Of a stretch of DNA of 39,258 bases, positions 9,730 through 20,993 are shown one piece after another. This DNA is from Pirellulales bacterium. Its GTDB lineage: Bacteria; Planctomycetota; Planctomycetia; Pirellulales; UBA1268. Where the stretch lies: assembly GCA_044337015.1 (NCBI GenBank), contig JBIIOJ010000003.1:1-39258 (forward strand), given 5' to 3'. A program made the translations under genes and the position numbers. Within the stretch, counting starts at the first letter, position 1; each line of letters opens with the position of its first letter. Below the pieces are notes generated by a model that worked only from the letters and a program-made list of their open reading frames with translations, did no database searches and had not been told where the DNA came from.

Positions 9730-11280
9730 TCACGAGCCCGTGCGGAGCAGGTCTTCGACGCGGCGGATCGCCTCGTCGGCATCCCAGCGGGCGTCGGCCA
9801 TCTGGAGTTGGGATCGGCTCGAAACCCATGAAGCGACGGTTTTGTGGGCGGCGATCACGGTCGAGTGGCTGCGACGGCCGAAGTAGCTGCCGATCTCCGT
9901 GAGGGCCGCCGGGGTGTGCTTCCGCGCGAGGAACATCGCGAGCATCCGCGGGTGGTTCACCCGCTTGGCCCGGCGGGAAGATTGCAGCGAGCCCGTCTCG
10001 AGGCCGAACGCGGAGCAGACCGCCTTCTCGATATCGGCGAGACGGACGCTGCGGACGCTTGCTCGCACGAGGTCGGCGAGCGATTCCTCCGCGAGTCCCC
10101 GGGTCACGGGGACGCCGAGCATGTGGCTCGTGGCCTCGAGCCGGTTCACGGCTCCGGCGAGTTCCCGGGCGGTCCGCGTCATGTGCGTCACGACGAACTC
10201 GACGACGTCTTCCGGCAACCGGAGCCGCTTGCGGTCGGCGATCGCGAGCACGATGCCGCGGCGAACCTCGGCATCTGGCGGGGCGATCCGGGCCGACATG
10301 CCGCCGGAGAGCCTCTGCACGAGGTCTTCCCCGAGGTCGCCGAGGTCGGCGATGTCACGGTCGCAGGAGACGACCAACTGCCGGCCCTGCCGCTGGAGGG
10401 CGTCGATGGTCTGCTGAAACTCCACCGTCGTCGCCCGCTTCCCGAGAAAGAACTGCAGGTCGTCGATGACGAGCAGGTCGACGTTGCGGCAGTTGCGGCG
10501 GAATGCCGGGAGCCCGCCACCATGAAGCGCCTGGAGGAAACTCGTGGTGAACTGCTCGGCCGAAAGGAACAACGCCGAGATGCCAGGATGGCGTTCCCGG
10601 GCCCGATGGCAGCAATGATCGAGCAGGTGCGTCTTTCCCACGCCGCTCGGCCCCTGGACCAGAAGAGGCGAAATTTCCCCGGGACGCTGCACCATGAGGT
10701 CGATCGCGGCGATCGCCATCCGGTTGCTCTCGCCGGCGATGAACGGGCCGAACCGAGGCCCCTGCTTGCGGCCGCTTCGAGGCACTGCTGGATCTCGAGA
10801 CACTGCTGGATCTCGAGACACTGCTGGATTCCGGGCGGGTTCCTCCTGGGCGGACTCCTTGGCCGCCGCGGACGCCGTCCGCTCCTCGCCGGCTGGTCGG
10901 GCCCCACGGCGTTGGACGGGGACGGCATTCACGGCGACTGCGACGGGTTCCCCGGTCTCAGCGTGGCTCTCGGCGGGCTTCGGAGTGGCTGCGTGCTCGG
11001 GACGGGCTTCAGCGGCAGCCGGCAGTGACTTGACCGATTCGGTATCGTCGCAGCGAAACAACACGCCTGCCTCCGCACCGCAGATCGACCTTGCCACCGC
11101 CTCCAACTCGCTCCTGAACGTCTTCCGGATCCAATCGAGCACGAACCCATCGCCCGATTCGACGACGATTCCGCATTCGATCAGACGGAGCCGAACAGAG
11201 CCCCCGAACCACACCTCGAAACGCTGCTGCCCGATCCTCGCTACGAGTTCCGATTCAACCGAAATCCCGCACGACGACAT
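9730..11280 (-). CDS. dnaA: Chromosomal replication initiator DnaA (paralogue not linked to dnaN)
   Basis: Domain I RFEVWF; Walker A GPSGVGKTHL; Walker B LLVIDDLQ; sensor II ARELAG; domain IV PRMLAMFLARKHT...IGSYFGRRSHSTV; start at 11280 or 11295. Confidence 0.9.
   Translation of the reverse strand: MSSCGISVESELVARIGQQRFEVWFGGSVRLRLIECGIVVESGDGFVLDWIRKTFRSELEAVARSICGAEAGVLFRCDDTESVKSLPAAAEARPEHAATPKPAESHAETGEPVAVAVNAVPVQRRGARPAGEERTASAAAKESAQEEPARNPAVSRDPAVSRDPAVPRSGRKQGPRFGPFIAGESNRMAIAAIDLMVQRPGEISPLLVQGPSGVGKTHLLDHCCHRARERHPGISALFLSAEQFTTSFLQALHGGGLPAFRRNCRNVDLLVIDDLQFFLGKRATTVEFQQTIDALQRQGRQLVVSCDRDIADLGDLGEDLVQRLSGGMSARIAPPDAEVRRGIVLAIADRKRLRLPEDVVEFVVTHMTRTARELAGAVNRLEATSHMLGVPVTRGLAEESLADLVRASVRSVRLADIEKAVCSAFGLETGSLQSSRRAKRVNHPRMLAMFLARKHTPAALTEIGSYFGRRSHSTVIAAHKTVASWVSSRSQLQMADARWDADEAIRRVEDLLRTGS
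10777..10829. repeat. In-frame 18-bp tandem repeat (about 2.9 units) in the DnaA domain II linker
   Basis: cactgctggatctcgaga at 10783-10800 and 10801-10818 plus partial units; encodes NPAVSR-DPAVSR-DPAVPR. Confidence 0.9.
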
Positions 11281-11390
11281 CGCGGAGCCTCGCATCCATG
11301 CACGACCCGGCTTCCCTGCCGGCTTTCCCTCCTCAGCGGACGATCCTTCGAACGCGACGGCTGGTCACCGTCCGTCCGTGAGTGAGGCGG

Positions 11391-11588: not shown

Positions 11589-12656
11589 ATGACGGCGAAT
11601 TTCTCCATAAGCGGCCGATCTTTTCGCAGACTTCGGGACGGATTCCGATTCGCCGTGGCGGTCGTGATCTTCACCTTTCCATGCGACCGGGGCCGCGGGG
11701 AAGAGAATTCCTCGAAAGCCTTCGGGCCCCCGGGCTGGCTTGGGCTCGCGATCGACGATTCGCTCGTGCCCGGAAGGCTCGTCGTCGTCGAGGTCGACGC
11801 CTCCGGTCCGGCCGCCAAGTCGGGCGTGCGAGTGCAGGATATGGTGCTCGCGATCGACGGCGAGCCGACACTCGATGCAGAGCGTTTCGCCGCGGCGATC
11901 GCGACGATCGGTCCGGGTGACACCGTGCGGTTCTCCATCGGCAGGGGCGGCACGGTCGAGGAAATCACAATGACCGCCGACGATCCGCCCCCGGCCCCCC
12001 CTTCCCCGCCCCGTTCGTCATTCGGCCAGCCCCCTTCCCAGTTTCCAAGTGGGATCGACCCCGCAGCAACGACACTGGACCCCGCAGCCGCGGCCGCTGC
12101 TCCGCAGTCCGCAGGCGTGGTACCGCCCTCCGTGTCCGTGCCGGCGTTTTCCGAACCAAGGCCGTCCGAACTGAAACCGGCCCAGGATCGGTGGCAGGGC
12201 TCGATGGGCAGCGTCCCGCCCGCCCGAACGCCTCCGTCGGAAAGCGGCCGGGGCAAGACCGCGCTGGGAGTCAGGACCGTGCCAGTCGACCCGGTCGTTC
12301 AAGCCCGCTACAGCCTGCCCGAACCCATTGGGGCGCTCGTCGTCGGCCTCGTGGAAGACCTGCCCGCCTCCCGCGCCGGCCTGCCGACGGGGAGCGTGAT
12401 CGTGGCGTTCGACCGACAGCCCGTGCGTTCGCCGATGGAACTCACAAAGCTCGTCAGCGAGGGACCGACAGACCGGCCCGTGACGCTCGAGTACATCTTG
12501 CCGGGAGGTGAATCGAGGGCCGCCGATGTTTCGCTCGTGAGCGTGGCTGGCGCAGGAAACGGCATCAGTGCGGAGATCCACGAACTGCGTCGCGCGATCG
12601 AGTCGTTCACGAAGCGGCTCGACGAACTCGAAAGGCGAGCCATTGAGAACCGCTGA
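11589..12656 (+). CDS. Exported protein with two PDZ domains, Pro-rich linker and C-terminal coiled-coil-like tail
   Basis: GWLGL..VVVEVDASGPAAKSGVRVQDMVLAIDG and ALGVR..VVGLVEDLPASRAGLPTGSVIVAFD PDZ patterns; no protease motif seen. Confidence 0.75.
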   Translation: MTANFSISGRSFRRLRDGFRFAVAVVIFTFPCDRGRGEENSSKAFGPPGWLGLAIDDSLVPGRLVVVEVDASGPAAKSGVRVQDMVLAIDGEPTLDAERFAAAIATIGPGDTVRFSIGRGGTVEEITMTADDPPPAPPSPPRSSFGQPPSQFPSGIDPAATTLDPAAAAAAPQSAGVVPPSVSVPAFSEPRPSELKPAQDRWQGSMGSVPPARTPPSESGRGKTALGVRTVPVDPVVQARYSLPEPIGALVVGLVEDLPASRAGLPTGSVIVAFDRQPVRSPMELTKLVSEGPTDRPVTLEYILPGGESRAADVSLVSVAGAGNGISAEIHELRRAIESFTKRLDELERRAIENR

Positions 12657-12683
12657 CGACCCTGAGAACCGCTGACGACCCTG
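12644..12683 (+). repeat. Perfect 19-bp tandem duplication spanning the PDZ gene stop codon
   Basis: tgagaaccgctgacgaccc twice (12644-12662, 12663-12681). Confidence 0.9.
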
Positions 12684-12705
12684 TCGCGACCGACAGATTT
12701 CTCTA

Positions 12706-12734
12706 CTGACAATCCCGCGGGCGTAGTTCATACT
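12706..12734 (+). promoter_or_regulatory. Candidate sigma70-type promoter for the leader ORF / dab operon
   Basis: CTGACA (12706-12711), 17 nt spacer, CATACT (12729-12734), about 30 nt upstream of the leader ORF GTG. Confidence 0.45.
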
Positions 12735-12766: not shown

Positions 12767-13102
12767 GTGACAGCCTGTCGCACAACTCTTTTGCTCACCG
12801 TGGTGGCGGCGACGTTGCTCGCCGGGCTCTTCAAGGCCGCCTCTGTTGACGACCAACGCGCGGGCGTTGGTCGGTCGCAGTCCTACGACCTCGACGCGGC
12901 GGCCCTTGAGAAGTCGGTCGATGTCGAGGTCGATGCCGACGACGACGGCTCCCATGACCGAGCGTGGGATTCCTTCGGCCCAACCGTAGCGCTGCCGGCG
13001 AAGGCCTCGAGTGGCCGACTCACACTCGCCCAGGCGGACGCCGCTCCGCGGCAGCCCCTTCTCGCGACCTCTTCCGTCCGCGGCCCTCCCTGCCGCGGTT
13101 GA
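12767..13102 (+). CDS. Putative leader / ribosome-arrest peptide (N-terminal hydrophobic segment, C-terminal RGPP)
   Basis: 111 aa ORF filling the gap before dabA; TLLLTVVAATLLAGLF, acidic DVEVDADDD spacer, ends SSVRGPPCRG-stop. Confidence 0.6.
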   Translation: MTACRTTLLLTVVAATLLAGLFKAASVDDQRAGVGRSQSYDLDAAALEKSVDVEVDADDDGSHDRAWDSFGPTVALPAKASSGRLTLAQADAAPRQPLLATSSVRGPPCRG

Positions 13103-13208
13103 GCCTCCGGCGCCGCCCCACGCATCGGTCCGCGTGGATGCAGCGTCCGTTTTCCGGGGCGGCCGCGCGCCCGGATTCTTCGGCACACCACTGGACGTTT
13201 CCGCCCGC

Positions 13209-16200
13209 ATGCCCTCCCTCGACGACAAACGCGACGAAGTGGCTCGGCTCATCGCCGAGGCGGCGAGATTCCTGCCGCCACAGGGGCCGATCGACGCGTT
13301 CGTCGCACAGAACACTCTGCAGGGCTTCGAGGACCTGCCATTCGAGGAGGCCGTCATCCGGGCGGCGACGCTCCATGACACGGAGCCCTTCCTTCCCGAG
13401 AGCCGCTACCGCGAAGAACTCGCCCGGGGCCGGATTCGCGCCGCCGACATCGACGCGGTACTCGCCGCGGACCTCGGCGACCGTCGGTTCGAACCCCTGG
13501 CCGGCGGCCGGATCACGCTCGGCGAACTCTGCCGCCAGATTCTCCTGCACGGCGTGCGGCTGGAGAGCGACGCCGCCGTCCGCTGGACGCTCACGGAGAG
13601 CCCGGCCATCGAGCGACTGCGGCCCGACCTCGACGAGACCGCGCGCGAGAGACTCATGGGCGTCGGCCACGCCGCCGGGGCGGCGACCGACATCGATGCC
13701 GAAAGGAACGTCACCAGCGAACTGTGGCATGCCTGCGTCGAGACAACGTCGCGGACCCGCCCTTCGGTCGTGCACGGCCGCCCGCCGGTCCGGCATCGCG
13801 ACCTGCTCCTCGCCGTCGATCCCTCGCTCGACACCGACGCCCTCGTGCATCCGCTGCTTATCCGTCTCGTGGCGGCGTATCTCGACCAGGGCGTGGCGGC
13901 GTGGGCGATGCCGGACCGGGATCGCGGCCTGCTGTCAGCCGTGGCGGACCTCGTGGGTCGCGGAGGCGTGCTGCCGGAGGGATGGACGCGGCCGCTGCCA
14001 GATCGCATGCGGGCGGTTTCCGCCGCGTGCGGTCCCGGACTGCCGCCCGAGTCGATCTCGCTCGACGTGATCGCAGCGGAGCTCGAGGTCCTGGGCATCC
14101 CGCGACCATCGTGGCCCGACCACATCGCTCGATCGCTCGTGGCGCTGCGTGGCTGGGCCGGCATGGTGCGGCAGCTGGAGATCCGCCCCGACCGCGCGCC
14201 GGTCGTCCGGTTGCCGGTCAGGCTCGCCGACTTCCTCGCGCTGCGACTCCTGCTCGACCGTGCGGCCACCGAGTGGGCGCTCGGGCGTCGTGGCTTCCCG
14301 ATCGCCGCTGACGGTGCCGGCGACACCGGCCTCGGTGCGGCATGGGTCGAACTCCGCGACCGCCATCCTCCGCGACGTGGGCCGGGCAGCCTGGCCCGTG
14401 GGCTATTGCTTCACCAAGTATCGCAGCTCGTGGGGCTCACCCCGGCGGACATCCAGTCGCTCGACGACGACGATCTCGTCGATCTCGAGCGGGCGATCGC
14501 CGCCTTCGACGCGGTCTCGCGACGGCGACTCTTCCACATCGCCTACGAGCGGCGGCACGCGACCGAGGTGCTCGACGCACTGGCCGCGCATGCCACCACC
14601 GGCAACGCCTCGCGGAGCGGCCGGCCCCGGGTGCAGGCGGTGCTGTGCATCGACGACCGCTGCGAGTCGTTCCGACGCTATCTCGAGGAGGCGGATCCCG
14701 CGGTCGAGACCTTCGGTGCGGCCGGATTTTTCTCCGTGCCGATGTACTACCGCGGCATCGATGACTGGCACACGATCCCGCTCTGCCCGATCGTGATTCG
14801 TCCAGCGCACACCGTGACCGAGGTGCCCAAGGAAGGAGCGGCGGCGCTCAACCGCCGAAGGCAGTCGCGGCGGCGACTGCTCGCACGACTTCGCGGCGGC
14901 GCGGAAAGCGGCAGCCGCACGCTCTTCCGCGGAGGCCTGTTCACGTCGATCGGCGGAGCGCTCGCGGCCGTGCCGCTCGTGGCCCGGGTCGTCTTCCCGC
15001 GGCTCACGGCCCGCGCCGCGAGTCATGCCGCCGACGTCGCCCGGCGTGGGATCCGCACGCGACTGGAGCTGTTGCGGCAGGTCGATGTCCGCCTGCCCGA
15101 TGGCACCCTCGCCGGCTTCGAGGTCGCCGAGATGGCGGCCATGGTCCGTCGCCTACTGGAGGACATCGGGCTCACGCGAGGGTTCGCGCCGCTCGTTGCC
15201 GTGATCGGCCACGGCTCGACGAGCCTCAACAACCCGCACGAAAGCGCCTACGATTGCGGAGCCTGCGGCGGCGGCCGCGGTGGCCCCAACGCCCGGGCAT
15301 TCGCGCTGATGGCCAACGACCCGGCCGTCCGCACGGCGCTCGCGGCCGGCGGACTGGAGATCCCCACCCACACGGTGTTCCTGGGCGGCATGCTCGACAC
15401 CTGCACGAGCCGCGTGCAGTGGTTTGATCTCGATCGCGTTCCGCCCAGCCACGCCGAGGCCTTGTCGCGCTGGCTGGCCGATTGCACCCGCGCCGGATCG
15501 CTCGACGCCCGGGAGCGATGCCGCCGGTTCGATTCGGTGCCGCTCGACGTGTCGCCCGACGAAGCGCTTCGCCGCGTCGAGGGACGAGCCGGTGACCTCG
15601 CCCAGGTGCGGCCCGAGTACGGCCATGCGACCACCGCCGTCTGCATCGTCGGCCCGCGGAGCCTGACCCGCGGCCTCTACCTCGACCGCCGCGCGTTCCT
15701 GGTTTCCTACGATCCGTCCGCCGACGCCGACGGTGCGGTCCTCGAGCGGTCGCTCGCGGCGGTGGGGCCCGTCTGCGGCGGCATCAACCTCGCCTACCTG
15801 TTCTCCCGCGTCGATCCAGTGGGCTACGGCGCCGGCACGAAGCTGCCGCACAACATCACGGGGCTCATCGGCGTCATGGACGGTCATTGCAGCGACCTGC
15901 GGACCGGTCTGCCGCTGCAGGGCGTCGAGATCCACGAGCCGGTGAGGCTCCTGCTCGTGATCGACGCGCCCACGGACCGCATCCGCGACGCGATCGGCCG
16001 CTTGCCCGCGGTGCGGCGACTTGTCGAGAACCAGTGGGTGCGCACCGTGGCACGTGATCCGGCAACCGGTCGGCTGGCCACGTTCTCTGCGACGAACGGC
16101 GGCAGGTTCGTGCCTTACGAGCCCGAGAGCCTCACGATCGCGACGGCACCTGACTCGACCTCCTGGTATCGCGGCCGTCGCGACAACGTCCCGCCAGCCC

Positions 16201-16241
16201 GGATCATCGCCGGCTCGATCACCCCGGACACCGCACCATGA
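13209..16241 (+). CDS. dabA: DabA / DUF2309 (UPF0753, MpsB-like) beta-carbonic-anhydrase-like subunit of an inorganic carbon pump
   Basis: LPPQGPIDAFVAQNTLQGFE, GWAGM, CIDDRCESFRRYLE, ETFGAAGFF, GHGSTSLNNPHESAYDCGACGG, AQVRPEYG, LDRRAFLVSYD, DLRTGLP, HEPVRL; putative Zn ligands C480, D482, H668, C683. Confidence 0.92.
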   Translation: MPSLDDKRDEVARLIAEAARFLPPQGPIDAFVAQNTLQGFEDLPFEEAVIRAATLHDTEPFLPESRYREELARGRIRAADIDAVLAADLGDRRFEPLAGGRITLGELCRQILLHGVRLESDAAVRWTLTESPAIERLRPDLDETARERLMGVGHAAGAATDIDAERNVTSELWHACVETTSRTRPSVVHGRPPVRHRDLLLAVDPSLDTDALVHPLLIRLVAAYLDQGVAAWAMPDRDRGLLSAVADLVGRGGVLPEGWTRPLPDRMRAVSAACGPGLPPESISLDVIAAELEVLGIPRPSWPDHIARSLVALRGWAGMVRQLEIRPDRAPVVRLPVRLADFLALRLLLDRAATEWALGRRGFPIAADGAGDTGLGAAWVELRDRHPPRRGPGSLARGLLLHQVSQLVGLTPADIQSLDDDDLVDLERAIAAFDAVSRRRLFHIAYERRHATEVLDALAAHATTGNASRSGRPRVQAVLCIDDRCESFRRYLEEADPAVETFGAAGFFSVPMYYRGIDDWHTIPLCPIVIRPAHTVTEVPKEGAAALNRRRQSRRRLLARLRGGAESGSRTLFRGGLFTSIGGALAAVPLVARVVFPRLTARAASHAADVARRGIRTRLELLRQVDVRLPDGTLAGFEVAEMAAMVRRLLEDIGLTRGFAPLVAVIGHGSTSLNNPHESAYDCGACGGGRGGPNARAFALMANDPAVRTALAAGGLEIPTHTVFLGGMLDTCTSRVQWFDLDRVPPSHAEALSRWLADCTRAGSLDARERCRRFDSVPLDVSPDEALRRVEGRAGDLAQVRPEYGHATTAVCIVGPRSLTRGLYLDRRAFLVSYDPSADADGAVLERSLAAVGPVCGGINLAYLFSRVDPVGYGAGTKLPHNITGLIGVMDGHCSDLRTGLPLQGVEIHEPVRLLLVIDAPTDRIRDAIGRLPAVRRLVENQWVRTVARDPATGRLATFSATNGGRFVPYEPESLTIATAPDSTSWYRGRRDNVPPARIIAGSITPDTAP

Positions 16242-17623
16242 CAGCCGCCGAGATTGCCTTCCTCCACGACGCGGTCGCCGGCCTCGTCATCTGGCAGCTT
16301 GCCGCCCCCGCCGCGGCGCTCGTGGCGATCGGCCTGCCGGCCCTGATCGGGCGGCCGCTGCCCGAGCGGGCGACGACCTGGATTGTCGGTGCCGGCTTCA
16401 CGACCGGTTTCCTCGCGGCCGTCGCCACGCTCGCCGCGCTCGCCGCCCGTGGCTTCGTGCCCGAGGTGGTGCACCTCGGCAGCCTCTTCACCGCCAATCA
16501 CCACGCCGCCACGATCGAACTCGTGGCCGACAGCCTTTCGGTGCCCTACGTCTGCTTCGCGACCGGCCTCTGCGGGCTCGTCAACGCCTTCGCCGGCAAG
16601 TACCTGCACCGCGAGCCCGGTTTCACCAGATTCTTCATCCTTCTGGCGCTCTTCGGAACCGGCATGAACCTGATGGTGCTCGCCGGGAGCATCGACGTGT
16701 TGTTCGCCGGCTGGGAGTTTCTGGGGATCTCGTCGGCCCTCCTGATCGGGTTTTTCCACGAGCGGCGCAACGCCGTCGATGCAGCCCTGCGGGCCTTCAC
16801 GACCTATCGCGTCTGCGACGTCGGCCTGCTCGCCGCCGGCGTGGTCATCCACCAAGCGGCAGGCAGCGGCGACTTCACCCAGGTCTTCGCCGGCACGTGG
16901 CCGAACGCCAGCTGCCTCCTGCCCCACGCCACGGCGACGCTCCTCGGCCTGCTCCTGGTCTTCGCGGCGCTTGGCAAGAGCGGCCAGGTGCCGTTCACGG
17001 GCTGGCTGCCGCGGGCCATGGAGGGTCCCACGCCGTCGAGCGCCATCTTCTACGGCGCCCTGTCGATCCACGCCGGTGCCTACTTGCTCCTGCGGTGCGA
17101 GGCGGTGCTCGACGCGGCGCCGGTGGTGGCGTGGCTGCTCCTGGCGATCGGCGTTGCCACGGCCATCCACGGCGCGGTCGTGGGCAGCGTGCAGACCGAC
17201 CTCAAGGGCATGCTCGCCTATGCGTCGATGACGCAGGCGGGGATCATCCTCGCCGAGATCGGACTCGGCCTGCGCTTGGTGCCTCTCGTCCACGTGGTGA
17301 GCCACGCGATCCTCCGCAGCCTGCAGATCCTGCGGTCGCCGTCGGCGATGCACGACCGCCACGAACTCGCCGCCGCGCTCGGCGGGCATCCCGGGCCATC
17401 GACATCGACCGTGCTCCGGCTCTTGCCCGCGGGCGTGGTGAAGCGGCTCTACCGGGTGGCGCTCGACCGCGGGCTCGACGAGCCGCTGGTCGCCAGGTTC
17501 GTGGTGCGGCCGGTGCGGGCCACGCTCGAGGCCGCCGCGGCCGCGGAGCGTCGCTGGGTGGAGTTCCTCGGCGGGGCGGCGGTCGGCTCCCCGCACCGCG
17601 GCGACGACGGAGGTCCAGCATGA
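16238..17623 (+). CDS. dabB: DabB / NuoL(ND5)-like proton-conducting membrane subunit
   Basis: KYLHREPGFTRF, FAGWEFLGISS, YRVCDVG, GKSGQVPFTGWLPRAMEGPTPSSA, DLKGMLAYASMTQ; ATGA overlap with dabA; 461 aa. Confidence 0.88.
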   Translation: MTAAEIAFLHDAVAGLVIWQLAAPAAALVAIGLPALIGRPLPERATTWIVGAGFTTGFLAAVATLAALAARGFVPEVVHLGSLFTANHHAATIELVADSLSVPYVCFATGLCGLVNAFAGKYLHREPGFTRFFILLALFGTGMNLMVLAGSIDVLFAGWEFLGISSALLIGFFHERRNAVDAALRAFTTYRVCDVGLLAAGVVIHQAAGSGDFTQVFAGTWPNASCLLPHATATLLGLLLVFAALGKSGQVPFTGWLPRAMEGPTPSSAIFYGALSIHAGAYLLLRCEAVLDAAPVVAWLLLAIGVATAIHGAVVGSVQTDLKGMLAYASMTQAGIILAEIGLGLRLVPLVHVVSHAILRSLQILRSPSAMHDRHELAAALGGHPGPSTSTVLRLLPAGVVKRLYRVALDRGLDEPLVARFVVRPVRATLEAAAAAERRWVEFLGGAAVGSPHRGDDGGPA

Positions 17624-19074
17624 GCCAGTTCGACACCACCGCCATAGCGGCAGCGGGCGTTGCGGTCGGTGCGCCCCTCGCGGCCGCGGCCGTGCTGCGG
17701 TCTGCCGGCTCCCGTCTGGGTCCGCGGGCAGTCGCGGGCACCACGCTTGGCGGCGTTCTCGTGGCGGCGGCCGTCGTGGCCTGGTGCTGGCACGCGGGTG
17801 GGGCGCGCACATTGATCTGGGGTGACCGCCTCGCCGGCGGTGCCATCGTCACGATCGACGGCCTGTCGGCGCTCCTCATGCCGTTCATCGCGGTGGTCGA
17901 TCTTGCAATACTGCTGGCCGCCCCCCGGCGGGCTCTCTCGCCGGAGGGTGTCTCGCGGACGCTCTGCGGAGTCGCCGCCACGTTCGCGATGCTCGCCACG
18001 TCCCATCCCGTGGCGCTCGTCGTGCTCTGGATCGTCTCATCGACGGCAACCTGGGCGGCCGTCCGTGGCACGCTCGGCGGACGGCCCACCGCCCGGGTCT
18101 ACGCGCTGGCGATCGGCGTGGCCGTCGTGCTCATGGCCGTCGGAACGGCCCTGCTCGTCGCGGATCCGCCCTGGCTGCGGTCGCACGGCGCGGTTGGCGC
18201 GGTGGGGGGCTGGCTCGTGGCCGTGGCGGTGATGATCCGCAAGGGGCTCGTGCCGTTTCACTCGTGGTATCCCGCGCTCTTCACGGGCGGCCCGCTCGCC
18301 TCGGCACTCACCGCGACCATGCCGCAGGTGGCCTCCTACACGGCCGTGCGGCTCCTCGTCGGCCACGCCGACGGCGTGGGACCCGAACTCGTCTTTCTGT
18401 CGAACGCCGCGCTCGTTACGGCCGCCTACGGCGCGGCCCTCGCCGTCGTGCAGCGCGACGCCCGTGGGCTCCTCGGTTACCTGGCCATGAGCCAGTCGGC
18501 GATGGTGCTCGCCGGCATCGCGGCGACGGTGCCGATGGAACTCATGGGAGCGCTTGCCGTCTGGGTGTCGAGTGGGCTTGCGCTCACGGGAATCGGCCTC
18601 GTCATCTGGGCACTCGAGAGCCGGGCGGGCCGTATCTCGCTCGATTCGCTCCAGGGCCGCTTCGCCGACGCGCCCGCCCTTGCCGCCTTCTTCCTGCTTT
18701 TCGGGCTGGCGAGCCTCGGCTTCCCGGGCACGTTGTCGTTCGTGGCCGACGACCTGATCATCTCCGGGGCCCTCGGATCCCAGACCCACGCGGGCATCCT
18801 CGTGATCCTAACGACTGTCTTCTCCGGCATCGCCGTGATCCGTGGCTGGTTTCGTATCTTCGGCGGGCCGGTGACCGTGGATGCCCCCCGGCACGAGATC
18901 CTTCCGCGGGAGCGGCTTGTGTTCACGGCGCTTCTGGCCATCATCTTCGGGCTGGGGCTGTGGCCCGGCCCGTTCGTGCGATCGCTCGACGCGGTCGCCC
19001 GGTCGATCCTCGTCTCTTCTGAGCCGGCTTCCGAGCATGCGCCCACTTCCCTTCCCCAAGGAGCCCATCCATGA
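17620..19074 (+). CDS. Second proton-antiporter-like membrane subunit (NuoM/ND4-like, divergent)
   Basis: IDGLSALL, IRKGLVPFHSWYP, LASLGFPGTLSFVAD, LGLWPGP; GGAGG RBS and ATGA overlap with dabB. Confidence 0.82.
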   Translation: MSQFDTTAIAAAGVAVGAPLAAAAVLRSAGSRLGPRAVAGTTLGGVLVAAAVVAWCWHAGGARTLIWGDRLAGGAIVTIDGLSALLMPFIAVVDLAILLAAPRRALSPEGVSRTLCGVAATFAMLATSHPVALVVLWIVSSTATWAAVRGTLGGRPTARVYALAIGVAVVLMAVGTALLVADPPWLRSHGAVGAVGGWLVAVAVMIRKGLVPFHSWYPALFTGGPLASALTATMPQVASYTAVRLLVGHADGVGPELVFLSNAALVTAAYGAALAVVQRDARGLLGYLAMSQSAMVLAGIAATVPMELMGALAVWVSSGLALTGIGLVIWALESRAGRISLDSLQGRFADAPALAAFFLLFGLASLGFPGTLSFVADDLIISGALGSQTHAGILVILTTVFSGIAVIRGWFRIFGGPVTVDAPRHEILPRERLVFTALLAIIFGLGLWPGPFVRSLDAVARSILVSSEPASEHAPTSLPQGAHP

Positions 19075-20993
19075 CCGCCGACGCTTCCGCTCCGCGGCCT
19101 GCCATGACCGCCGGAGAGGTGCCGCATGGCACGCCCGCCGGCTTCCTCCACTACCTGAAGCAGGACGCCACGAGCGGCTTCCTCGTGTTCCTCATCGCGC
19201 TGCCCCTGTGCCTCGGCATCTCGCTGGCCAGCGGCTTTCCGCCCGTCGCGGGCGTGTTCACGGCGATCGTCGGCGCCGTCGTCACGTCGCTGATCTCGAA
19301 CTCCGAGCTCACGATCAAAGGCCCCGCCGCGGGCCTCATCGTGATCGTGCTCGGGGCGATGCAGTCGTTCGGTTACACCGGCGGCTCCGACCCGGCGGCC
19401 GATTTGCAGGCCTACCGGATGGCGCTCGCGGTGGGCTGCGTGGCCGGCGTCGTGCAGGTGGCTTTCGGCCTGCTACGGGCGGGAGCCTTGAGCGAGTTCT
19501 TTCCCACGGCCGTGGTACACGGCATGCTCGCGGCGATCGGCTTCATCATCTGCCTCAAGCAGATCCCCGTCGTGTTCGGCCAGAAGGCCTCGGGTGAGCC
19601 GCTCGAGATCCTCCGTGAACTCCCGGAGAAGATCGCGCACTTCAATCCCCATATCACCGTGATCGGCCTGGTGAGCCTGGCGATCCTGTTCGGCCTCCCG
19701 CTCGTGAAGACGCGTCTGCGGCCGGCCTGGCTGCGGATGATCCCCGCCCAGCTGCTCGTGCTGGCGGTGGCGGTGCCGCTGGGCATCTGGTTGGGGATCG
19801 GCGAGTCATTCCTCGTCAACGTCCCCGGCAACCTCGCGGCCGCCGTGACGACTCCCGACTTTTCCGTCTTCACCTCGGCCGCCACCCGCACGTCCGGCGT
19901 CTGGTGGGTCGTGATGTTCGCACTGGTGGGCAGCGTGGAGTCGTTGCTCTCGGCCAAGGCGATCGACCTGCTCGACCCCTGGCGCCGCAAGACCGACATG
20001 AACCGCGACCTGCTCGCCGTGGGCGTGGCGAATGTCGCCGCCTCATCGCTGGGCGGCCTGCCGATGATCTCGGAAATCGTCCGGAGCAAGGCAAATATCG
20101 ACAACGGCGCCCGCACGCGGTTCGCCGACCTCTGGCACGGCTTGTTCCTCCTCGCCTTCGTGGCACTCGTCCCCTGGGCGATCCACCGCATCCCGCTCTC
20201 GGCGCTCGCCGCGATGCTCGTGTACACGGGCTTCCGGCTCGCCTCGCCCCGGGAATTCATCAATGTGTTCAAGATCGGCTCCGAGCAGCTCCTCATCTTC
20301 GTGGCGACGATCGTGGGTGTGCTCGCCACCGACCTGCTCGTGGGCGTGGGGATCGGCATCGCGCTGAAGTTCGTGATCCACGCCCTCAACGGCGTGCCAC
20401 TCTCGTCGTTCTTCAAGCCATTCCTCAAGGTGACCGCGTTGGACGACCACACCGTCCAGATCGACGCCGGCGGCTCCGCGGTATTCAGCAACTGGATTCC
20501 GTTCCGCCGGCAGATCGTGCAGCTCGGCCTGGCCCAGGGCCACAATGTGGTCGTGAACCTCGCCGGCGCGAGGGTCGTCGACTCGAGCGTGATGGAGAAG
20601 CTGGAGGGTCTCGGCCACGACTTCGAGCAGGCGGGGCTGAAGCTCGACGTGGTGGGCCTCGAGTCGCACCGCGGCGCATCGACCCACCCCCATGCCACTC
20701 GCCACCGGTCGCTCACACGCCTTCGCCGGGTGACGGTCGTGGCGGAGGCCGCCCTCGAGACGCGGCTCGCACGGCGTTTTCGCGAGCTCGCCGCCTCGGG
20801 TCACACGGCGATGCCCTGCCACGGCGCCGGCCGCAGCGGCACAGGCGGCGACGGCTTCGTGCGGATCGAGGCCATCGTGCCGCACGACGCCGCCGATCGG
20901 ATCCTAGACGCGATCCAGGCCGAGTTCGCGCCGGCCCACCGCGTGACCGTCTGCATCGAGACCGTGGAGGTGCTGCGGCCGGAGAAGTTCTGA
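19071..20993 (+). CDS. SulP/SLC26 anion (probably bicarbonate) transporter with STAS-like domain, fused to a C-terminal PII-like (SbtB-like) domain
   Basis: DATSGFLVFLIALPLCLGISLASG, IKGPAAGL, ESLLSAKAID, GGLPMISEIVRSKAN, IPLSALAAML; STAS-like VVNLAGARVVDSSVMEKL; residues 551-640 PII-like, ending VEVLRPEKF; AAGGAG RBS, ATGA overlap. Confidence 0.88.
   Translation: MTADASAPRPAMTAGEVPHGTPAGFLHYLKQDATSGFLVFLIALPLCLGISLASGFPPVAGVFTAIVGAVVTSLISNSELTIKGPAAGLIVIVLGAMQSFGYTGGSDPAADLQAYRMALAVGCVAGVVQVAFGLLRAGALSEFFPTAVVHGMLAAIGFIICLKQIPVVFGQKASGEPLEILRELPEKIAHFNPHITVIGLVSLAILFGLPLVKTRLRPAWLRMIPAQLLVLAVAVPLGIWLGIGESFLVNVPGNLAAAVTTPDFSVFTSAATRTSGVWWVVMFALVGSVESLLSAKAIDLLDPWRRKTDMNRDLLAVGVANVAASSLGGLPMISEIVRSKANIDNGARTRFADLWHGLFLLAFVALVPWAIHRIPLSALAAMLVYTGFRLASPREFINVFKIGSEQLLIFVATIVGVLATDLLVGVGIGIALKFVIHALNGVPLSSFFKPFLKVTALDDHTVQIDAGGSAVFSNWIPFRRQIVQLGLAQGHNVVVNLAGARVVDSSVMEKLEGLGHDFEQAGLKLDVVGLESHRGASTHPHATRHRSLTRLRRVTVVAEAALETRLARRFRELAASGHTAMPCHGAGRSGTGGDGFVRIEAIVPHDAADRILDAIQAEFAPAHRVTVCIETVEVLRPEKF

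Follow-up and report, generated by a model that had tools for sequence, protein, structure and literature searches.

We analysed a 39,258-nt stretch of DNA (the window) from a Pirellulales bacterium (assembly GCA_044337015.1, contig JBIIOJ010000003.1; G+C content 69%), in which a short open reading frame (ORF) precedes the genes of an inorganic-carbon pump. DAB complexes are widespread, energy-coupled pumps that hydrate CO2, and the window carries a dabA gene (DUF2309; 13209–16241, forward strand, ATG start) that matched the Pfam family PF10070 with an E-value of 1.4e-228. The short ORF, hereafter the leader, occupies 12767–13102 on the same strand, starts with GTG, comprises 111 sense codons and ends with TGA, and is separated by 106 nt (13103–13208) from dabA, the gene that it presumably regulates. 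A first-pass annotation of this DNA had described a 111-aa ORF between a plausible promoter and dabA, with R-G-P-P three codons before its stop, as a candidate ribosome-arrest leader peptide; the length of the ORF, the position of the motif (13079–13090) and the length of the gap were all found as it had given them, and a promoter-like sequence lies at 12706–12734.

The promoter candidate on the forward strand at 12706–12734 is a sigma-70-like sequence, CTGACA-17 nt-CATACT, that ends ~33 nt before the leader start and is a consensus match only, with one found relative to 0.0 expected from 50 shuffles. Upstream of it lies a PDZ-domain gene (11589–12656, stop at 12656), followed on its 3' side by a terminator-like hairpin with a T-rich tail (12681–12696, forward strand), a weak signal with one found versus 0.5 expected in shuffles. 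Given this hairpin, the arrangement suggests that the leader and dabA begin a new transcription unit. Downstream of dabA, and on the same strand, are a gene for a dabB-like NuoL/MrpA-type membrane subunit of 461 aa (16238–17623), the start of which overlaps the dabA stop, a gene for a second antiporter-like subunit of the NuoM/MrpD type (17623–19074, ~483 aa, start approximate) and a gene for a SulP/BicA-like permease fused to a P-II-like C-terminal domain (19071–20993), the start of which overlaps the preceding stop. Thus, the genes downstream of the leader encode DabA, NuoL-like, NuoM-like and SulP-PII proteins, and no Sec or YidC component was found among them, unlike the genes that follow monitoring substrates of the SecM, MifM and VemP type.

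Searches of Pfam and NCBIfam with the leader returned no family, and it is hence not a member of the SecM family, for which there was no Pfam match. Its G+C content by codon position (0.73/0.57/0.76) resembles that of the neighbouring PDZ gene. Residues 8–24 (12788–12838, forward strand) form an N-terminal hydrophobic segment (13 of 17 residues by hydrophobicity count) that could serve as a signal peptide or signal anchor, and by the same count the ~85 residues that follow are mostly hydrophilic. Among these is an acidic cluster, E48–D60 (12908–12946, forward strand), with seven Asp or Glu residues in the 15-residue window of residues 46–60, located 59 to 47 residues before the Pro predicted to occupy the ribosomal P site; both the signal-like stretch and the acidic stretch had been pointed out in the first-pass annotation. 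The codons CGC GGC CCT CCC (13079–13090, forward strand) encode R105-G106-P107-P108 and are followed by Cys-Arg-Gly and the TGA stop codon (13100–13102, forward strand), three codons after the Pro pair. With a geometry borrowed from Sakiyama et al. 2021 and Fujiwara et al. 2025, the predicted stall would leave the codon of P107 in the P site and that of P108 in the A site; counted from the first base of the former codon, the end of the stop codon is at 18 nt.

We located the 5' end of dabA in 124 loci of related genomes, 120 of which could be evaluated because 450 nt or more lay upstream of the gene. In 59 of these 120 regions, a same-strand ORF ended 80–192 nt before dabA and carried the motif 1–3 residues before its stop (RGPP in 53, RAPP in one and GRSPP in five), and a further two loci, beyond the 59, had RGPP 8 or 10 residues before the stop. 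The check proposed at the outset, a search upstream of DUF2309 genes for small ORFs whose N-termini diverge while a terminal R[AG]PP is conserved, was therefore borne out, albeit within one family, and the absence of a conserved ORF or motif from orthologous loci, which had been named as grounds for dropping the idea, was not what we saw. The five GRSPP leaders (L040, L147, L148, L149 and L150) end in [H/R]-G-R-S-P-P plus 1–2 residues and share the hydrophobic start, with a weaker acidic cluster (5–6 Asp or Glu) and a longer spacer (183–191 nt). Two loci of genus g4 (L053 and L133) held natural variants that lack the canonical core, one of which ends in R-D-P-P, while the other has R-G-S-P, has lost its stop and runs on in frame towards dabA; either decay of these copies or errors in assembly may account for them.

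By itself the ORF is no proof, because long ORFs fill every frame at 69% G+C, and the codons of RGPP are themselves GC-rich, so that a chance origin of both ORF and motif, a caveat already attached to the first-pass annotation, had to be considered. This explanation was refuted by the background frequencies. In the window's own genome, R[AG]PP occurred in the last nine residues of only 49 of 27,569 six-frame ORFs of at least 60 codons (0.18%), and among these motif-ending ORFs only the dabA leader also had a convincing hydrophobic stretch. In the 120 upstream regions, by comparison, R[AG]PP ended 55 of 1,122 six-frame ORFs of at least 60 codons, 54 of which were the leader and one of which was on the opposite strand. 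Considering same-strand ORFs only, the motif was found in 54 of 594, and all 54 were immediately before dabA.

The spelling of the motif also argued against chance, since its codons turned over synonymously while the residues stayed invariant. Across the 54 loci the Arg codon was CGC in 47, CGT in five, CGA in one and CGG in one; the first Pro codon was CCG in 27, CCT in 10, CCC in nine and CCA in eight; and the second was CCC in 22, CCG in 20, CCT in 11 and CCA in one. The Gly codon was GGC in 26, GGG in 12, GGT in 10 and GGA in five, and overall the 12-mer had 32 distinct spellings in 54 loci. This turnover at invariant residues indicates that the frame is read as protein and that selection acts on the peptide. 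We conclude that the leader is almost certainly a real and translated ORF.

Selection on the peptide left little of its sequence fixed. In an alignment of all 59 leaders, including that of the window (A3), the only invariant columns were R105, P107 and P108, the mean column identity was 27%, and 57 of the 58 other members were 14–26% identical to the window's leader. A protein search of the relatives with the window's leader alone gave a single real match, an 89% identical copy in genome G001 (all other matches in that search had E ≥ 0.05 and were spurious), and the leader N-termini have thus diverged beyond recognition. What was retained is an anatomy. A hydrophobic N-terminal segment was present in 59 of 59 leaders (11–15 of 17 residues), followed by an acidic cluster of 5–11 (median 8) Asp or Glu per 15 residues and then by a linker of ~42 residues between acidic cluster and motif that is variable in sequence and nearly gap-free. 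The distance to the first Pro of the Pro pair was 89.2 ± 4.8 residues from the end of the hydrophobic segment, 58.0 ± 3.7 from the first acidic residue and 45.3 ± 3.6 from the last, and the cluster spanned position -50 from the stall Pro in 56 of 59 leaders. The interval between hydrophobic stretch and acidic cluster was more variable (31.1 ± 5.9).

RAPP and RGPP have been described as versatile arrest cores, with RGPP the most robust of the variants tested (Fujiwara et al. 2025, EMBO J, PMC12992588). The Arg of the motif was irreplaceable, position 2 was fully permissive for Gly or Ala and partially so for Ser, Asp or Pro, and elongation factor P (EF-P) gave no rescue of the arrest (PMC12992588). 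Because Ser and Asp at position 2 are partially active, the GRSPP group and the RDPP variant among the dabA leaders can be accommodated. The two motifs are depleted in proteomes and over-represented close to the C-terminal ends of small secretory or membrane proteins whose genes precede a diverse set of others, with sec, TonB-dependent receptors, YcnI, PCu(A)C, PepSY, DsbA/thioredoxin and ECF sigma factors among those named; CruR of Bordetella pertussis is one such arrest peptide upstream of non-localisation genes, and seven of seven examples tested from Streptomyces lividans stalled (PMC12992588). The dabA leader resembles this class in being a small protein (<300 aa) that has an N-terminal signal or transmembrane segment and carries R-[AG]-P-P within a few residues of its stop, and in immediately preceding a functional gene on the same strand, with the motif conserved and the rest diverged. 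It differs in that arrest is predicted here and in that what is conserved is a cluster of acidic residues held at a fixed distance, whereas the sensors proposed for the published class are Cys/His metal sites (PMC12992588). Sequence comparison supports the leader as a member of the RAPP/RGPP class (Sakiyama 2021; Fujiwara 2024, 2025), notable for its inorganic-carbon-pump target and for the placement of its acidic cluster.

The first-pass annotation knew of no earlier description of this combination, which held only in part. RAPP/RGPP leaders beyond sec and yidC are already in print (PMC12992588), but the link to an inorganic-carbon pump appears to be new; the words 'DabA', 'DUF2309' and 'carbon' have no occurrence in the main text of that paper (figure lists and supplements not covered), and a full-text literature search found no paper joining DabA or DUF2309 to arrest or leader peptides.

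The peptides ApdA, ApdP and ApcA, which have a RAPP or RAPG core with an essential Arg and stall when the P site is occupied by the third motif codon (Sakiyama et al. 2021, NAR, PMC7897499), were found by searching for proteins of 80–200 aa that combine a topogenic signal with a hydrophilic domain of 40 aa or more, and whose genes lie upstream of sec or yidC. The dabA leader shares all of these properties except the last. In contrast to these peptides, which precede sec or yidC in Actinobacteria and alpha-Proteobacteria, the planctomycete leader precedes dabA, and it has no sequence homology to them beyond the motif (no Pfam or NCBIfam family). SecM is similar in combining a signal sequence with a C-terminal arrest sequence that ends in I-R-A-G-P, and the residue before the motif Arg in the dabA leaders is likewise mostly Ile or Val (42 of 54); a further likeness would lie in an arrest that is relieved by the pull of translocation and that controls the next gene. 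However, the SecM motif is RAGP within a long FxxxxWIxxxxGIRAGP, and SecM works through the opening of a stem in which the secA Shine-Dalgarno sequence is otherwise hidden (PMC7897499), a mechanism that is unsupported for the dabA leader.

Taken together, these comparisons make it probable that ORF 12767–13102 is a translated, membrane-targeted arrest leader of the RAPP/RGPP class that regulates the dabA-dabB inorganic-carbon pump operon in cis. Its separate parts differ in strength. By analogy with the published motif, the leader very probably stalls the ribosome at RGP/P, and control of dabA in cis is reasonably likely. From published motif behaviour, the ribosome would stall at P107/P108, holding R-G-P-tRNA in its P site and Pro-tRNA in its A site, without relief by EF-P, and, as expected from the class and the N-terminal signal, the N-terminal segment would engage the Sec translocon so that a pull on the nascent chain ends the stall.

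The conserved features could also belong to a small acidic protein, secreted or anchored in the membrane, that does its own job, such as that of a periplasmic or accessory partner of the DAB complex; RGPP would then be a binding or sorting tail and any pausing would be incidental. The ORF is clearly under peptide-level selection, and the conserved acidic cluster and spacing could reflect the function of a mature protein. Nevertheless, we consider this explanation decidedly unlikely, as a folded partner would not usually keep just three invariant residues in a sequence otherwise 27% identical, these residues coincide exactly with the strongest EF-P-refractory stalling motif, one that is depleted in proteomes (PMC12992588), and a tail of 1–3 residues together with a variable linker of kept length fits the geometry of the tunnel and ribosome better than a binding tail.

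If the leader acts as an arrest peptide, the spacing of its acidic cluster may bear on what releases it. During a stall, the cluster would be 44–58 residues from the peptidyl-transferase centre, which corresponds to the distance where negative charges inside the SecYEG channel of E. coli feel the membrane potential. In E. coli, a segment of five aspartates (D5) exerted a pull on the nascent chain that peaked ~50 residues from the arrest point, shrank when the membrane potential was dissipated and vanished in simulations without a potential (bioRxiv 10.1101/310698). Because the acidic cluster of the leaders spans the -50 position, the lifetime of the stall may report membrane potential, the source of energy for the DAB pump, or translocation capacity. 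A more specific version is that the leader is a nascent-chain voltmeter, in which the pull of the membrane potential on a cluster of 7–11 acidic residues sets the duration of the stall and hence the output of the ion-gradient-driven DabAB and of the co-transcribed BicA-like/P-II transporter; we regard it as rather unlikely.

The leading edge of a ribosome stalled on the motif would lie at about the leader stop, 12–18 nt from the P-site codon depending on the 1–3 tail residues, and toeprints of the related peptides were found 15–17 nt from the P-site codon (PMC7897499). There, the stalled ribosome would hinder a hairpin-plus-T-tract at or just after the stop, such that transcription or translation continues into dabA and the stall corresponds to the ON state. 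The leader–dabA spacer of the window (13103–13208, forward strand) is C-rich and has no Shine-Dalgarno sequence; the absence of a clear Shine-Dalgarno sequence had been remarked on previously, and indeed there is no purine run before the dabA ATG, and pyrimidines also prevail in the 59 related start regions. A candidate attenuator or terminator (13108–13157, forward strand) consists of a hairpin at 13108–13149 (-21.1 kcal/mol, relative to an average of -9.4 kcal/mol for shuffles of the same spacer) followed by TTTTCCGG at 13150–13157, with TTTT at 13150–13153. The inner stem of this hairpin is the pair 13118–13123 / 13132–13137, one of the possible spacer hairpins proposed in the first-pass annotation. 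Although a stricter terminator scan found none in this spacer, a hairpin with a T-rich octamer was present in 42 of the 59 spacers, and the mean energy of the best hairpin was -11.9 kcal/mol, compared to -7.9 kcal/mol in dinucleotide shuffles (20 of 20 shuffle replicates were weaker). A total of 31 of 59 spacers reached -12 kcal/mol or below versus 36% of shuffles, and in 24 of these 31 the hairpin start lay between -6 and +18 nt relative to the end of the stop codon.

The proximity of a hairpin and T-tract to the leader stop in many loci is reminiscent of TnaC and of classical attenuators with leader peptides. As with TnaC, the behaviour of the RNA downstream would be governed by a ribosome halted at the very end of a leader ORF. 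TnaC requires free tryptophan and Rho, and trp-type attenuators use runs of codons; no such codon runs were seen in the dabA leader. We tentatively propose that the leader acts through the stop-proximal hairpin, an idea with weak support to which we would give clearly less than even weight.

A variant of the proposed arrest control keeps the stall and changes the wiring, in that the stalled ribosome blocks Rho (as in TnaC, with the stall as ON and no hairpin required) or blocks downstream events (with the stall as OFF). The composition of the spacers would suit Rho, as they were C-rich and G-poor over the 59 loci (C 0.41, G 0.32; C exceeded G in 50 of 59), and they would be untranslated for 80–192 nt after a stall that lies 1–3 codons before the stop. 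However, the first 150 nt of dabA had a similar C excess (0.37/0.30 for C/G), and the skew of the spacer is therefore not specific as a signal for a Rho site. In addition, the spacers are rich in stable GC hairpins, which disfavour Rho loading, and overall we consider the inverted or Rho-dependent arrangement unlikely.

Several observations weigh against arrest-based control of dabA by the leader, and most of them concern the RNA. All six complementary words from which the first-pass annotation had built its spacer hairpins were present at their coordinates, but the 171-nt segment 13070–13240 that contains them folded no better than chance (-67.9 kcal/mol versus a shuffle mean of -68.2 kcal/mol, z 0.07). 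The enrichment of hairpins with T-tracts was modest, with 17 of 59 loci lacking any, and the hairpin of the window starts 5–6 nt past the expected edge of the ribosome. Consensus folding of the two spacer subgroups that could be aligned (six and nine of the 59) gave hairpins with little covariation; in one subgroup the covariation term was positive, and the remaining spacers were too divergent to align. Due to the small number of compensatory changes we do not claim a conserved RNA fold in the spacer, and Rfam searches at gathering thresholds (the window plus five loci) gave no matches.

Unmasking of the dabA start in the manner of SecM was examined by partition-function folding of the 59 leader–dabA spacers, either free or with a 30-nt ribosome footprint placed over the RGPP codons. 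It was rejected as a generic mechanism, which again counts against the proposed control, since the unpaired probability of the dabA start was 0.45 in the free RNA and 0.47 in the stalled state (mean change +0.016), with an increase of more than 0.1 in eight of 59 loci and a decrease in five. The suggestion of SecM-style unmasking thus found no support over the 59 loci. For ApcA, ApdA and ApdP, too, no hairpin sequestering the downstream ribosome-binding site was found (PMC7897499). The absence of an RNA switch in the folding of the start region would be expected for a protein with its own job.

Other points on the same side concern the motif and the setting. RAPP alone is insufficient for stable arrest, as upstream residues matter (PMC7897499), and two relatives carry RDPP or RGSP in place of RGPP. 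The reading of the acidic cluster in terms of membrane potential transfers distances from E. coli to an uncultured planctomycete. To our knowledge, arrest has never been shown on a planctomycete ribosome. No RNA run was listed as containing this stretch. Contigs of four DNA runs had an identical leader sequence and, beyond 13269, matched only conserved dabA parts of other organisms, and are therefore uninformative on expression and variation. Finally, 55 of the 114 dabA loci within the family had no leader, many of them with an MpsC gene in its place, and dabA therefore does not require the leader.

Among the sampled genomes the leader was confined to one family (f1). By genus, it was found in 4/4 loci of g1, 42/46 of g4 (plus three variants), 8/10 of g10, 3/4 of g11 (plus one variant) and 2/12 of g8, and was absent from g9 (0/20), g12 (0/13), g5 (0/3), g2 (0/1) and g6 (0/1), as well as from the other families of the order (0/6). 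A profile search with A3 gave full-length matches inside the family only; weak partial matches beyond it, in 6 of 268 other genomes of the order and 1 of 400 of the phylum, were treated as noise. Of 8,000 candidates scored in a protein database search with A3, 23 were relatives of the leader, all of them unnamed or 'hypothetical' and without a Pfam domain. No leader-like ORF was found at 15 dabA loci of Acidobacteriota, Myxococcota, Isosphaeraceae and others (L215–L230 minus L224), where the one motif match was an out-of-frame, Arg/Pro-rich ORF ending 364 nt upstream. Leader-bearing DNA was also present in lake-water metagenomes.

In many loci of the family without the leader, an MpsC-family gene (PF10057; E 1.6e-28 for L023:502–1161) replaced it 100–370 nt upstream of dabA. 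Loci of this type include L023, L028, L033, L068, L110, L115, L117, L120 and others of genera g9 and g12, and the position of the gene points to a second, paralogous operon type in the family. That this operon type has a real gene for a small protein at the same position is a further point for reading the leader as a protein with its own job. In the spacer between mpsC and dabA, out-of-frame 'peptides' recurred across genomes, which suggests a conserved nucleotide element; Rfam gave no match on L023, L028 and L110. The window's genome (G000) had five MpsC-family matches elsewhere (contigs C32 and C103; best E 1.9e-33), none of which adjoins this dabA.

The localisation signal and arrest motif directly before genes for a membrane complex would also be compatible with an arrest that is real and serves to hold the dabAB mRNA at the membrane for insertion of DabB and assembly of DabA, as in the targeting of an mRNA by XBP1u, with no role as an expression switch. 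The lack of start-site unmasking agrees with such a role. On the other hand, the leader stop is 80–192 nt from dabA and dabB has its own hydrophobic targeting, and all characterised bacterial members of the class regulate expression (PMC12992588), so that we judge mRNA targeting to be very improbable.

As a regulator of expression, an arrest-type leader conserved before dabA would extend the RAPP/RGPP class into carbon acquisition and into the Planctomycetota, and suggests that a stalled ribosome helps to switch CO2 uptake on or off in one freshwater planctomycete family. It is a concrete regulatory element that can be tested cheaply, and its 59 natural variants are a ready-made mutational series. 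The features that are fixed among them (the stall core, the 1–3-residue tail, the ~42-residue linker and the acidic cluster), while the rest drifts, point to the parts that matter. The discussion of Fujiwara et al. 2025 raised the question of where the pull comes from in arrest peptides that are not monitors of Sec or YidC (PMC12992588), and an acidic cluster at about -50 makes this question testable. Were membrane potential indeed to set the duration of the stall, the leader would be the first arrest peptide to sense the energy state of the membrane, as opposed to a translocase, a metal or a metabolite, and the first post-transcriptional regulator known for a DAB carbon pump.

Some further sequence features were seen around the leader and its operon. 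The codon before the motif Arg usually ends in C, which together with CGC GG makes the palindrome CCGCGG (13078–13083 in the window). This palindrome turns up again in many spacer-hairpin stems, and the stall site and the spacer might form alternative pairings. A mini-hairpin of the form TTCC-N4-GGAA was common to nine spacers (alignment A2). Downstream of dabA there are two antiporter-like genes and not one (16238–19074), and the first ~190 residues of the second matched no family. The permease encoded at 19071–20993 matched the NCBIfam BicA model with E 2.7e-38, which is under the cut-off of that model, and its P-II-like domain matched PF00543 with E 3.3e-9; a transporter fused to a signal-transduction domain would thus be co-transcribed with the carbon pump. 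Upstream, a perfect tandem duplication of a 19-nt unit (12645–12682) spans the stop of the PDZ gene just before the hairpin at 12681–12696. About 1.5 kb upstream of the leader there is a DnaA gene (9730–11295) on the opposite strand, and because of its closeness the dab operon may sit near a replication origin.

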